Part shown: positions 2,968 through 62,242 of the stretch, in pieces
How the letters are laid out: every line of letters begins with the position of its first letter
Position numbering within the stretch: the first letter of the stretch is position 1
Source: a virus
Taxonomy: Duplodnaviria; Heunggongvirae; Uroviricota; Caudoviricetes
IMG/VR virus record: IMGVR_UViG_3300013800_000004
Location: 64,001 to 128,000 of that record
Direction: 5' to 3' (one strand)
Length of the DNA stretch: 64,000 bases
The notes under the pieces: model-generated
What the model was told of the DNA's origin: nothing
Databases searched by the model: none
Seen by the model: the letters and a program-made list of their open reading frames with translations, nothing else
Program-made: the position numbers and the translations under genes

Positions 2968-4511
2968 AGTTCCTTCTGCGCTCTTGCTTCATCGCGGTCC
3001 CCACGGATGACCCGGAGCTCACGTTCCGCAACTACTTCGCGCTGTCTGACTCAGGTCTCGGGTTCGACGTGCCCGAGGACACCACCATCTGGGAGTTCAT
3101 CCGGGACTTCTCACAGACCCACAACCACGCCCCCGACGTGCGGACCATCCGGTCGCACTTTGAGAACATCAAGAACCCTGAGGCGGGGGACCGCCTGGAG
3201 ATTATCTCCCCCCTCAAGCCCCTGTTCAAGGGGGACTTCATCAAGCGCCTGGAAGAGCGGGCCGAGGAGCGCCGGTCCCGGATGGTGGTTGACATCCTCC
3301 GTGAGGCCTCGCAGATCCTCCAGACGGGCGTCGAGGTCCAGGAGGGCAAGAAGAAGAAGCACCTCCGCGGCCCCATGGACGCCGTGCGCTACCTCGTGAA
3401 CAAGTCCCACGACATCGTGATGCCCACCTCGGGAGCACGGCTGTCGGGTGAAATCACCGGGGACGGCAACGACTTCATGCGGGAGTACGAGCGGGTCGAG
3501 AACGATCCGCTTGCAGGCATTGGCCAGTTCACGGGCATCGGACAGATGGATGAGGCCCTCGGAGGTGCCAAGAAGCACGAGCTCTGGACGCACGCAGCGT
3601 TCACGGGTGGACTCAAGTCCACCCTTGCGTTCAACTGGGCGTACAACCAAGCGGTGCACTACAAGTACGACTCGCTGGTGTTTTCCCTGGAGATGCCCTA
3701 CGCACAGGTGCGCCGCATTCTCTACGCGATGCACTCCCTCCACCAGAAGTTCCGGGACGACCGCATTCGCTTGGGGGTTCAGAAGAACCCCGGTCCCAAC
3801 GTGGGTCTGGAGTACGGCAAAATCCGTGACGGGAAGCTCTCCAAGCTGGCCCCGGCGGAGAAGACGTTCCTCATGGACTACGTGGTCCCCGACTTCAACT
3901 CAGGGCTCTACGGCAAGATCAACATCGAGGTGAGCGACCCGGACAAGTCTGACTACAACGTCGCAGACATGAGGGCCAGGGCGGAGCTCATCTACTCCAA
4001 GTCCCCGTTCCACCTCCTGTTTGTGGACCACGCCGGACTGCTTTCACCCCGCCAGTGGGTGCCCAGCACCACCGAACGCATCAACGAGGTGATCCGAGAC
4101 CTCAAGCGTCTGGCCATGAACTTCAACCGCGGCGCAGGCATGGCCGTAGTGAACCTGTTCCAAATCTCTCGTGAGGGCTTCAAGGCCGCAGAGAAGATCG
4201 CGGAGAAGTCACAGGGGACGTTCGTCAACGGCCCCTACAACCTCACCCACCTGTCGTACGCCAACGAGGTGGAGCGGAGCTCCGACATCGTGACGGCGAG
4301 CTACCTCAACGATGAGCTCCGGGCTGCGAACAGGGCGCTGTTGCAGTGCATGAAGTCTCGTGACCAAGCTCCGTTTCAGAACTTCTACGCTCGCGTGGAG
4401 TGGCACTGTCGTCGTATCCTCACCTCGCAGGAGATGCCTATGGTGACTGGCCGTAAGGACGGCGACGCCAAGTTGGCGGACTCCCTCAAAGAGATCGAAG
4501 GACTGCTGTGA
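2964..4511 (+). CDS. dnaB: DnaB-like replicative helicase
   Basis: QFTGIGQMDEALGG, Walker A AAFTGGLKST, FSLEMP, LLFVDHAGLL, VNLFQISR, NEVERSSDIV. Confidence 0.85.
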   Translation: MKFLLRSCFIAVPTDDPELTFRNYFALSDSGLGFDVPEDTTIWEFIRDFSQTHNHAPDVRTIRSHFENIKNPEAGDRLEIISPLKPLFKGDFIKRLEERAEERRSRMVVDILREASQILQTGVEVQEGKKKKHLRGPMDAVRYLVNKSHDIVMPTSGARLSGEITGDGNDFMREYERVENDPLAGIGQFTGIGQMDEALGGAKKHELWTHAAFTGGLKSTLAFNWAYNQAVHYKYDSLVFSLEMPYAQVRRILYAMHSLHQKFRDDRIRLGVQKNPGPNVGLEYGKIRDGKLSKLAPAEKTFLMDYVVPDFNSGLYGKINIEVSDPDKSDYNVADMRARAELIYSKSPFHLLFVDHAGLLSPRQWVPSTTERINEVIRDLKRLAMNFNRGAGMAVVNLFQISREGFKAAEKIAEKSQGTFVNGPYNLTHLSYANEVERSSDIVTASYLNDELRAANRALLQCMKSRDQAPFQNFYARVEWHCRRILTSQEMPMVTGRKDGDAKLADSLKEIEGLL

Positions 4512-29365: not shown

Positions 29366-29911
29366 CTATCGGCGGTGTTTCCGCCAGCACTTCTGGCACA
29401 TCGGCACGTACGCCTCGCCCCCTCCGACCAGCACGTCTCCGTCCTTCTTGACCATGCACGCCGACCGGGTGGCCTCCGCTCCGCACACACAGATGGCGGT
29501 GAGCTTCTCGGGCTTGTCTGCGAGGCACAAGAGGTGCCCCATGGGTCCGAAGGGGTAGCCCTCGGACGTGAGGTCGAGGCCTGCCACCACGATGTACACC
29601 CACTCGGGGATCTTCTCTAGCCACAGGGGGAGGTCGATGTCGAAGAACTGACCCTCCTCGATCACCAAGAGGTCTGGGAGGGGATTGGGCAGCCCCTCCC
29701 AGACCCCCCTTGAGTCCTCCACCACCCTCGGGATCACCTCCAGTGTGGCGAGGGACAGTCCACTGTGGGTGACCACTTGCCCATTGCTCCGGGTGTCCAG
29801 TTTCGGGACACACACGTCCACGGTTTTCTTGGAGCGCAGAGCCCTGGAGACGAGGCGGTAAAGGGTGGTGGATTTTTCCGATCTTACGGGACCGGTTACG
29901 ACATGGAGCAC
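29366..29911 (-). CDS. tdk: thymidine kinase
   Basis: VTGPVRSEKST, IEEGQFF, VAGLDLTSEGYPFG, CVCG...YVPMCQKCW. Confidence 0.92.
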   Translation of the reverse strand: MLHVVTGPVRSEKSTTLYRLVSRALRSKKTVDVCVPKLDTRSNGQVVTHSGLSLATLEVIPRVVEDSRGVWEGLPNPLPDLLVIEEGQFFDIDLPLWLEKIPEWVYIVVAGLDLTSEGYPFGPMGHLLCLADKPEKLTAICVCGAEATRSACMVKKDGDVLVGGGEAYVPMCQKCWRKHRR

Positions 29912-29933
29912 TGGGGATTCCTCCGAGGGGATG

Positions 29934-30119
29934 CTACCGGGTGGGGGACGGTCTCCCGGCGAACCGGGTCTGACAGACCCGTAGCAGGCACCGGAACCCT
30001 GTGAGAGAGGATCTCGTCTCAGTGGGGAGACGGAGCCAGATTTTCCCCACCCCGTCGCCAGTACGTTGCTGGTGGGAACCCCCCTTGAGTTGGTGGCGGG
30101 TCTTGCTTTCGGGTCTCAC
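29934..30119 (-). CDS. orphan FGE/CLec C-terminal cassette mini-protein (61 aa)
   Basis: GTGA overlap with the upstream stop; HQLKGGSH-X24-GFRCLLRVC. Confidence 0.55.
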   Translation of the reverse strand: MRPESKTRHQLKGGSHQQRTGDGVGKIWLRLPTETRSSLTGFRCLLRVCQTRFAGRPSPTR

Positions 30120-30544
30120 GGACCTTTCCGCACAATGTCTATGGCCTCCTGAAGGCGGGACTGAAGCACCCTCCACACGCGCTTGTCCGCATCCCAGCGG
30201 GCACCGATGGTCTTGAGCTTCTCCTTCACGTCGTAGGTCTTGCCCGGCACGGGGACCATTGGGTCCGCAACGCCGCCGTTGAGCACATTGGTCTCAGCCG
30301 CCGACAAGTACAGAACCGTCCCGCACAGGACGTGACAGGTCGTGCCGGGCGGATGCCGGGCTGCGTAGAACCGGGCCGCTCGTTCGTTGGCCAAGGTGGA
30401 CGATGCCGAGACCCACCATGTGGACCCATCGGGGGCACTGTTTGCCGTCGCGTAGGTCGCCCCAAGCACCGCACAGAGGTCGGCCTTGTTCTTGGGAGCC
30501 CCCACCTCTGTGGTCTCCCCTTCCATTGGGATAAGTGTGGCCAT
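30116..30544 (-). CDS. hypothetical protein with C-terminal DUF5710-like domain
   Basis: TYDVKEKLKTIGARWDADKRVW; class I motif 7 nt upstream. Confidence 0.75.
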   Translation of the reverse strand: MATLIPMEGETTEVGAPKNKADLCAVLGATYATANSAPDGSTWWVSASSTLANERAARFYAARHPPGTTCHVLCGTVLYLSAAETNVLNGGVADPMVPVPGKTYDVKEKLKTIGARWDADKRVWRVLQSRLQEAIDIVRKGP

Positions 30545-30644
30545 GTGTACGTTACGCCCACCGCCACTGCCAACGGTGATGAGGTTCTAGGCCCTACAAC
30601 CAAGACCCCCATAAACTTGGGGTACTGTCTGTTGGAGGTTCTGT

Positions 30645-60823: not shown

Positions 60824-60856
60824 TACGTAGTCGCGGGCTCATGGCGTAAGAGAGCC

Positions 60857-61711
60857 ATGAGCCCGCCCGGCATCTACGGCATTGAGACTCGCGCCTGTGA
60901 CCCCGACAACCCCGCTTTCCTCGGGGAGGCCGGGACGTACTTGATCCGCGAGCTTGACGGCTCCTCGGGGGACGTCGAGGTATACGACGCCCTCCAAGAC
61001 CTCCCCGCCCACAACTCCCCGATCCTGGTCGCAGTCACGGACGACGCCGAGTACTTCTTCGGCGTCCACCCTCACTTCGGCCTCGTGCCGCAGCTCGAAG
61101 TCCTGCCCGGTCCCGACGGGCAGATCGCAGAGTACTGGCCGATGTACGAGGAGCTCGGCTTGGGGGTGGACGAGGGGGGCTGGGACGTGCCCTACCCCCT
61201 CCCCACGGGCGACCTCCACTGGGTCGCCTACGTGCCCCCCACCCCCCGGAGTGGGTTTCAGATGGGCCCCCCCGGCAAGACCCGCCGCGTCGACCTCCCC
61301 GGCGGGTGGGTCTCGAAGACGACCACAACGGTGCGCGAGTGGAACCTGTACGCGGCGGCGGTGGGGAAGCCATTGAAGCCGACGGAGGGAAAGCGCAACG
61401 GGGGCGAAGTGGACCTCTCGCACCATCCGGTCACGGAGGTCTCCTGGTACGATGCGTGCAACTGGTGCGAGTGGGCCGGGCTCGCCCTCCCCTCCGAGGA
61501 GCTCTGGGAGTGGACGGCCCGGGGCCCGGACGAGCGCACCTACCCGTGGGGGAACGCGCCCCCCGATGACGACAACTGTGTCTCCTCCTGCGTGACGGGA
61601 CGGGACGGGACGGACACGATCCTCGCGTGTCCGGGCGGGGACGGGCCCTTTGGGCACCGGCAAATGGTCGGCAACGTGTGGGTGTGGACGTCGACGCCGT
61701 GGACGTCATAG
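60857..61711 (+). CDS. FGE-sulfatase (C-type lectin fold) domain protein lacking the C-terminal RGG.W...GFR segment
   Basis: HPVTEVSWYDA..WC.WAG..LPSEELWE..ARG....YPWG...GPFG..QMVGNVWVW, then stop 7 residues later. Confidence 0.9.
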   Translation: MSPPGIYGIETRACDPDNPAFLGEAGTYLIRELDGSSGDVEVYDALQDLPAHNSPILVAVTDDAEYFFGVHPHFGLVPQLEVLPGPDGQIAEYWPMYEELGLGVDEGGWDVPYPLPTGDLHWVAYVPPTPRSGFQMGPPGKTRRVDLPGGWVSKTTTTVREWNLYAAAVGKPLKPTEGKRNGGEVDLSHHPVTEVSWYDACNWCEWAGLALPSEELWEWTARGPDERTYPWGNAPPDDDNCVSSCVTGRDGTDTILACPGGDGPFGHRQMVGNVWVWTSTPWTS

Positions 61712-61881
61712 CGCCCCGGTCTCGGGTTGTCTCATCCCGCGTCTGCCGTAGCAGGTGTTGGGACCACCCTGTTCCTGCCAGGATGTTCGCGTTCCACCGC
61801 AGCGGAACGCTGCCGTCGCATCGCTACAACGTCATCGGGTTTCGAGCATCGAGGGGCTGTAGGAGGGGGAAGGGGTCGTGA
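61699..61881 (+). CDS. FGE/CLec C-terminal cassette 1
   Basis: RVCRSRCW-X25-GFRASRGCRR; start uncertain (GTG 61699 or 61684); -1 frame relative to the FGE gene. Confidence 0.75.
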   Translation: MDVIAPRSRVVSSRVCRSRCWDHPVPARMFAFHRSGTLPSHRYNVIGFRASRGCRRGKGS

Positions 61882-62039
61882 ATCCCTATCTCATCATCCC
61901 CGTCACCGTCCGCGGCGACTCTTGGGCGAAACTCCCGATCCTCGCCCGAGACGCTGGGGACCGTAGTTGGCAGTTCCCGGAGGACTCCTACCCCACCGGA
62001 GGGTTCCGAGCGTCAAGGCGTTGCAAGAGGGCAAAGTGA
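61878..62039 (+). CDS. FGE/CLec C-terminal cassette 2 (53 aa, absent from the ORF track)
   Basis: VTVRGDSW-X25-GFRASRRCKR; GTGA overlap and AGGAGG upstream. Confidence 0.8.
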   Translation: MNPYLIIPVTVRGDSWAKLPILARDAGDRSWQFPEDSYPTGGFRASRRCKRAK

Positions 62040-62056
62040 GAAAGTCGAGTAACCTA

Positions 62057-62242
62057 ATGGAGCCCTTCCGCATCCATCGTGGTTGGTGCTGGATCATCGA
62101 CCTTCCTGTCAGGGTGCGCGCGGCGCGTAGATTCAGGGACGCGCTCGTGTTCCGGGACGTCAACGTCGGGTTCCGAGCGTCTCGTGGGTGCAAGCGGTGC
62201 CCTGCGGAGAGAGCAGACCGAGCCCCGAGCTATGCCCGGTAG
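62057..62242 (+). CDS. FGE/CLec C-terminal cassette 3
   Basis: RIHRGWCW-X25-GFRASRGCKR; ATG 62057. Confidence 0.8.
   Translation: MEPFRIHRGWCWIIDLPVRVRAARRFRDALVFRDVNVGFRASRGCKRCPAERADRAPSYAR

Follow-up and report, generated by a model that had tools for sequence, protein, structure and literature searches.

The 61-codon mini-gene ORF61, on the minus strand of the 64,000-nucleotide stretch of phage DNA analysed here (hereafter the window), is, as judged from sequence comparison, a genuine gene that is syntenically kept and under purifying selection. Profile comparisons identify its family as homologous to the C-terminal "tip" segment of the FGE/C-type-lectin fold, and ORF61 itself as an old, syntenically fixed and diverged member of a split-lectin tip family. 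The best explanation, which we hold with a confidence slightly above even, is that ORF61 is a translated, tip-derived mini-gene whose product inserts, as a fixed tip, into the truncated lectin scaffold encoded at 60857-61711. A preliminary description of the window had taken ORF61 for a dispersed fourth copy of the tip cassettes at 61699-62242. This interpretation is partly supported: it is right in kind (a free-standing mini-gene resembling a lectin tip, with a plausible action in trans) and wrong in detail (an old, diverged and invariant lineage, not a dispersed copy).

Position and sequence of ORF61

The source is a viral record of 148,225 bp with a GC content of about 62%, which is about 33% complete according to CheckV. 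ORF61 belongs to a three-gene operon on the minus strand, which runs from the GGGCGTAAC motif through the DUF5710-like gene and ORF61 to tdk:

30551..30559, minus strand: GGGCGTAAC motif, 6 nt 5′ of the ATG of the DUF5710-like gene; candidate phage promoter element, the "class I motif" of the preliminary description
30116..30544, minus strand: DUF5710-like gene, 142 aa, with a weakly DUF5710-like C-terminus; first gene of the operon
29934..30119, minus strand: ORF61, 61-codon mini-gene (stop included) encoding an FGE/C-type-lectin C-terminal "tip"-like peptide
29366..29911, minus strand: tdk (thymidine kinase; PF00265, E 4e-27), final gene of the operon

The DUF5710 match of the 142-aa protein (PF18974, E 3.8e-4, 20.6 bits) is below the Pfam cut-off. 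The GTG start of ORF61 (30119-30117) and the TGA stop of the DUF5710-like gene (30118-30116) form a GTGA overlap, and the reading frame between the DUF5710-like gene and tdk is present just as it had been described. A GGAGGAA ribosome-binding site directly follows the ORF61 stop, and the GTG start of tdk lies 22 nt past this stop. Moreover, both this operon and that of the scaffold begin at a GGCGTAA-type motif, as had been pointed out; the feature is not specific, as the motif precedes many genes here. The window contains 14 occurrences of the word GGCGTAAYAC, which is related to the GGGCGTAAC motif, where 3.8 would be expected.

The ORF61 peptide carries KGGSH at residues 12-16 and GFRC at residues 41-44, separated by 24 residues, and has a histidine where the FGE fold has the Trp/Tyr of GGSW. 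It had been read as TRHQLKGGSH-X24-TGFRC. The two motifs are there, while the spacing in this formula is off by one, with 24 residues up to GFRC, or 23 when the T before GFRC is counted with the motif. Likewise, the RGGxW...GFR..R.C skeleton ascribed to ORF61 holds for KGGSH and GFRC, but the "R.C" element lies one residue away from its place in the clustered cassettes, and the relatives do not conserve it. In its strict form, the ORF61 skeleton is found once when the entire record is read in six frames, where 0.03 occurrences would be expected. Matches to a looser skeleton at record positions 139012 and 78091 were rejected as chance. A DNA search of the INPHARED phage records gave no match.

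The ORF61 frame is open for 19 codons further 5′, up to an in-frame GTG at 30176 within the DUF5710-like gene (minus strand), and this upstream extension is also open in the related loci L003 and L004. An alternative start at GTG 30176 may yield an 80-aa form that overlaps the DUF5710-like gene.

Conservation and selection of ORF61

Is ORF61 a real gene? Relatives were gathered by means of the DUF5710-like protein, which gave four viral and eight full-length metagenomic loci; L001 and L005 are the same contig, leaving 11 distinct ones. The DUF5710-like homologues in the 11 full-length contigs have 48-75% identity. A scan of genome contigs for the DUF5710-like gene found none. In 10 of the 11 related contigs, an NTGA-coupled ORF of 53-72 codons lies between the DUF5710-like gene and tdk, which agrees with the earlier description of ORF61 as a free-standing, translationally coupled mini-gene, and tdk is found downstream of the mini-ORF in every related locus long enough to reach it. 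In one relative, L010, the 5′ half of the mini-ORF is gone, although both neighbour genes are kept; we count this apparent dispensability against our favoured explanation.

We then consider selection. When six close relatives are aligned with guidance from the DNA, the ORF61 frame has a dN/dS of 0.43, as compared to 1.31 and 0.93 in the other two frames, and variation is highest at third codon positions. By region, the values are as follows:

N-terminal framework of ORF61: dN/dS 0.26
middle of ORF61: dN/dS 0.40
around GFRC: dN/dS 0.28
tail of ORF61: dN/dS 0.55
tdk, for comparison: dN/dS 0.15
upstream DUF5710-like gene, for comparison: dN/dS 0.23

These data bear on the possibility that ORF61 is not a gene, but a decaying cassette relic or a chance ORF in a GC-rich spacer, in a region that is kept because its DNA or RNA carries a signal, for instance a tdk terminator or regulator. 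Several features fit such an origin. The GC contents at the three codon positions of ORF61 (0.60, 0.60 and 0.74) are less skewed than those of the neighbour genes, one further minus-strand frame is open across the spacer, the mini-ORF is damaged in L010, and most members of the family are uncalled in public protein sets, where one 61-aa representative was found. However, the ORF and its NTGA start remain intact in 10 of the 11 contigs despite a flanking protein that is only about 50% identical, and the purifying selection is confined to the ORF61 frame. RNA folding of the region gives no signal either: the minimum free energy has a z-score of -0.03, the RNAalifold covariation term of +0.98 kcal/mol (as against a folding term of -24.92) does not favour a structure, and tRNA and Rfam searches found none in the spacer, with weak matches only within tdk. 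An RNA element as the cause of the conservation was rejected on the z-score, the covariation and the absence of an Rfam match in the spacer, and we consider the non-gene reading as a whole improbable.

In one relative (L002, IMGVR_UViG_3300027694_000128, positions 3640-3900 of the locus), tdk stops after about 20 codons and is followed by an ORF with repeated SPETR/SPEAR units, which resemble the NUMOD3 motifs of homing endonucleases. The sequence suggests that this tdk is interrupted by a mobile endonuclease or intron.

The truncated scaffold and the clustered tips

The scaffold gene and the tip cluster that follows it are arranged on the plus strand:

60843..60850, plus strand: GGCGTAAG motif, 6 nt 5′ of the ATG of the scaffold gene
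60857..61711, plus strand: truncated FGE-sulfatase/C-type-lectin scaffold, 284 aa, covering PF03781 positions 30-196 of 255 and ending just past GNVWVWT
61699-61881, plus strand: tip C1, mini-gene of the cluster 61699..62242
61878-62039, plus strand: tip C2, joined to C1 by a GTGA overlap
62057-62242, plus strand: tip C3, mini-gene of the cluster 61699..62242

Within the 148-kb record, PF03781 matches only once, at window positions 61283-61711 in the scaffold, which bears out the statement that ORF61 has no FGE N-terminal half nearby. The five closest relatives of the scaffold (P0001 to P0005, 38-88% identity) all stop at the same point, after GNVWEWT. An HMM built from the tips of a related phage matches C3 with E 3e-8 and C1 with E 2.6e-6. 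When viral contigs were scanned with the scaffold as a single sequence, none were found, while an alignment query gave matches.

The truncated scaffold is present in both of the large records that have the mini-ORF, namely this record (G000) and its 266-kb relative (G001). In G001, units of 170-173 bp come after the scaffold, and each of them consists of a purine-rich stretch, an ATG or GTG overlapping the previous TGA, about 56 codons corresponding to Pfam positions 200-254, and a stop. The period of these units is 3n-1 because of the start/stop overlap. G001 has additional mini-arrays at distances of 2, 9 and 190 kb from its scaffold, and the aligned G001 tips differ only partly at adenines.

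A second dispersed chain in G001 (L030:718-1700, at about 70.6-71.6 kb) contains four tip mini-genes with GTGA overlaps at two of the junctions. Immediately after this chain come a GGGCGTAAG motif and the ATG of a 153-aa gene that is unrelated. In the window, the scaffold gene shares its last 13 nt (61699-61711) with C1, whose start is in the -1 frame. A -1 shift at this site would give a contiguous full-length FGE domain, so that C1 may be expressed either by programmed frameshifting or by separate initiation. P0001 and P0002 keep the same stop as the window scaffold.

Kinship of the ORF61 family with lectin tips

The kinship of ORF61 with the lectin tips is significant because of the family of its syntenic homologues, and not at the level of the single sequence. 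Pfam hmmscan at E values up to 10 found nothing for the 80-aa frame containing ORF61 or for seven homologues, and a single-sequence PHROGs search with ORF61 also found nothing. An HMM of the three clustered cassettes, run over six frames as the preliminary description had proposed, did not place ORF61 within its top 15 matches, and at this level the proposed membership of the cassette family fails. An 11-cassette HMM scores ORF61 with E 0.23 and 9.1 bits, which is not significant, and an HMM of the G001 tips scores it with E 1.1. In hhalign, ORF61 alone aligns at the correct position with P about 0.004.

In contrast, the alignment of the syntenic ORF61 family (11 rows, hereafter A3) yields a clear signal. 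The A3 HMM matches the tip mini-genes of G001 with E 1.4e-5 to 1e-3, as well as the C-terminal ends of full-length FGE proteins, while its best background match among the 3088 six-frame ORFs of this genome has E 0.09. Consistently, hhalign relates the ORF61 family to the tips (probability 91.4, P 9e-7) and to 19 full-length cellular FGE proteins (probability 90.3, P 1.5e-6), and in kind the lectin-tip kinship that had been claimed thus stands. The family aligns to FGE columns 273-320 of 335, which form the RVxRGGSW...GFRCA block. Sixty column shuffles reached maximum scores of 12.4 against the tips and 18.2 against the FGE proteins, as compared to 35.6 and 41.6 for the real alignments, and the reversed family alignment gave no score. 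The signal is kept in each subset of the family, with P 1.3e-5 for the close clade and P 4.6e-5 for the distant members.

In a blind profile search, 1.84 billion proteins yielded 11 matches at E up to 1e-3, among them one 61-aa member of the ORF61 family. Five matches were checked with Pfam; all five are FGE-sulfatase proteins with several domains, and wherever positions were compared, the match fell at a domain end. The second match of the library search, P0042, is a repetitive protein of 17 near-identical units without an FGE domain, and was rejected as a spurious summed match. The A3 profile further finds tip arrays in three of five other scaffold-bearing phage records (E 9e-7 to 2e-3) and one single match in a fourth. 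Tip-like mini-genes can therefore escape both Pfam and gene callers, and it takes family profiles based on synteny to reveal them.

How does ORF61 relate to the clustered tips? Like the tip mini-genes of these phages, it has about 55-60 codons, ends at a stop of its own and overlaps the gene before it by NTGA. It corresponds only to PF03781 positions of about 200-254 and shares both framework motifs with the tips; the same genome carries a truncated scaffold, which ORF61 fills in the modelled complex. In other respects, it differs from them. ORF61 lies outside any array, its coupling is to an unrelated gene, its operon is one of nucleotide metabolism and lies 30 kb away from the scaffold, and the combined alignment shows no central PSxVRAAxR segment in it. 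The spacer from the GGSW tryptophan position to GFR is 24 residues in ORF61 and 20-24 in its family, as compared to 25 in the clustered tips. This setting, the missing segment, the shorter spacer and the histidine count against the explanation that we favour, as does the failure of the single-sequence searches. Furthermore, ORF61 is not hypervariable; it is passed on vertically at a fixed syntenic position, where it is under purifying selection. Its DNA is similar neither to the cassettes nor to anything else in the 148-kb record. On this ground, a recent copy of the 61699-62242 cassettes was rejected, and the label of a "fourth copy" has to give way to that of a separate lineage, located between the DUF5710-like gene and tdk.

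Modelled complex of ORF61 with the scaffold

Next, we investigated the pairing of ORF61 with the 60857-61711 protein by complex prediction, combining the scaffold alignment A7 with the ORF61 alignment A3 and including three controls. The scaffold and ORF61 give ipSAE values of 0.88, 0.88 and 0.87, while the best of the three controls gives 0.00. For reference, this mark is reached by 58 of 80 solved complexes and by 2 of 110 mismatched pairs. The contacts agree between runs by at least 87%, and the pLDDT of ORF61 in the complex is at least 71. Residues 7-52, almost the whole peptide, are buried in the model, and G41 and F42 contact scaffold residues 191-200, 274-277 and 152-157, as expected of the last strand of the fold. 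The scaffold itself has a pLDDT of 86-88 in the presence of ORF61, as compared to 63-64 with unrelated partners. Modelled separately, ORF61 has a mean pLDDT of 47.5, and the scaffold (AlphaFold2) has a mean pLDDT of 50.6, which is too poor for a fold search.

The modelled complex thus completes the fold, as the preliminary description had anticipated. Complex prediction tends to accept the two halves of a known fold through their likeness to solved FGE structures. Because ORF61 and the scaffold are in effect two halves of a solved fold, the high ipSAE values show likeness, and not binding. With this reading of the values, ORF61 would dock onto the scaffold according to the model, and its action in trans is plausible.

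An alternative is that ORF61 still derives from a tip but no longer works with the scaffold, and acts alone as a small, very basic protein, an exaptation that we regard as rather unlikely. Its role could then be nucleic acid binding, modulation of the DUF5710-like or tdk products, or mainly the passing of ribosomes to tdk, and taken jointly these roles are given the same limited credence. Such an exapted peptide would suit the fixed synteny with the DUF5710-like gene and tdk far from the scaffold, the purifying selection without hypervariability, the loss of the central tip segment together with the Arg-rich tail, and the stop located 22 nt before tdk in the close clade. However, the framework motifs that contact the scaffold in the model are the best conserved parts of ORF61, with dN/dS values of 0.26-0.28 that approach the 0.23 of the upstream gene, and the peptide has no confident fold alone and yet is placed in the scaffold with high confidence. 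As for the ribosomes, the gap between the mini-ORF and tdk widens from 22 nt in the close clade to 118-210 nt in the more distant relatives; their coupling is therefore not conserved.

Proposed mechanism

Returning to the explanation that we favour, in which ORF61 serves as a fixed tip of the scaffold, we propose the following model.

Origin: The phage lineage would encode the lectin fold in pieces, with a scaffold ending after GNVWEWT and separately translated tips of about 55 codons chained by NTGA overlaps. ORF61 probably descends from the C-terminal tip segment (Pfam positions of about 200-254) of an FGE-sulfatase type C-type-lectin fold, and this old, diverged tip would have become fixed between the DUF5710-like gene and tdk.

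Translation: ORF61 is presumably translated, and we propose that this occurs by termination-reinitiation at the GTGA overlap. The resulting peptide most likely has no fold of its own.

Docking: The two framework strands, containing KGGSH and GFRC, would insert into the open scaffold produced from 60857-61711. The product would be a complete lectin-like domain, in which the tip is fixed rather than hypervariable.

If ORF61 docks in this manner, then the split-lectin system has a conserved, non-variable component beside its hypervariable tip arrays, supplied from a different operon. It would also provide a clean, testable handle on the main question of the whole system, namely whether tips act in trans. 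The pair to be tested is well defined, as it consists of one 61-aa peptide and one scaffold protein, both of which are identical in many metagenomes.

A bolder version, which we offer tentatively and consider doubtful, is a two-part binding protein in which one truncated scaffold is loaded non-covalently with exchangeable tips, and ORF61 is the invariant "default" tip, expressed from a separate operon. If this is true, then ORF61 gives constant specificity, or keeps the scaffold folded until variable tips compete for the socket, and the exchange of subunits diversifies the binding site without recombination or a mutator enzyme.

Comparison with known systems and invariance of ORF61

The closest described things in the literature searched are the DGR variable proteins of the FGE-type C-type-lectin fold, including Thermus aquaticus TaqVP (PMC6328139), archaeal AvpA (PMC5006420) and Treponema denticola TvpA (PDB 2Y3C). 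In that literature, we found no description of a split FGE/C-type-lectin scaffold with arrays of tip mini-genes in GC-rich huge phages. In the DGR variable proteins, ligands are bound by a tip that tolerates variation; this tip is the RGGSW-GFRC segment closing the fold, and ORF61 aligns exactly there. Their tip is covalently joined to the rest of a complete domain, and a reverse transcriptase rewrites it from a template repeat, whereas the tip represented by ORF61 is a separate gene; no reverse transcriptase was found in the fragmentary records G000 and G001, and no template in G000. Cellular FGE proteins (the SUMF1-EgtB-PvdO family, PF03781) have the RVxRGGSW and GFRC framework motifs in the same order. 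In contrast to them, ORF61 comprises about a fifth of the domain, with no catalytic part, a shorter spacer and His for Trp.

Could ORF61 itself be a target of a DGR? In such a case, ORF61 would be either a remote target made up of the variable region alone or a template repeat, and the reverse transcriptase that rewrites it would be encoded elsewhere. FGE-type C-type-lectin tips are classic DGR variable regions, and targets that are remote and very short (from 44 aa) are on record (PMC5758913); the low completeness of the record (about 33%) would also fit. On the other side, the reverse transcriptase domain RVT_1 (PF00078) has no match in G000 or G001, both of which are fragments, no second DNA copy of ORF61 exists in the 148-kb record, ORF61 is letter-for-letter identical in contigs of three unrelated studies, and the substitutions between relatives show the codon pattern of purifying selection. 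We therefore regard rewriting by a DGR as very improbable.

The contigs in question come from freshwater, activated sludge and soil, and are identical to the window over 29481-30544, ORF61 included; contigs omit rare variants, and this identity covers the dominant sequences. ORF61 is thus not hypervariable across the assembled sequences compared. In addition, near-identical DNA of the operon (85-100% of the sampled words) occurs in 16 sequencing runs (X1-X16) of 12 studies dated 2015-2025, obtained from wastewater, sludge, freshwater, runoff and soil, and the phage is therefore widespread. None of the listed runs that carry the operon is an RNA run; one further run, X17, which is labelled RNA-Seq and is probably DNA, covers only portions of tdk and of the upstream gene.

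The contigs of these three metagenomes share the same 13 substitutions within a 76-bp patch at the 3′ end of tdk (29405-29480); apart from this patch, they do not differ from the window across 1.1 kb. From its sequence, this looks like a small recombination patch.
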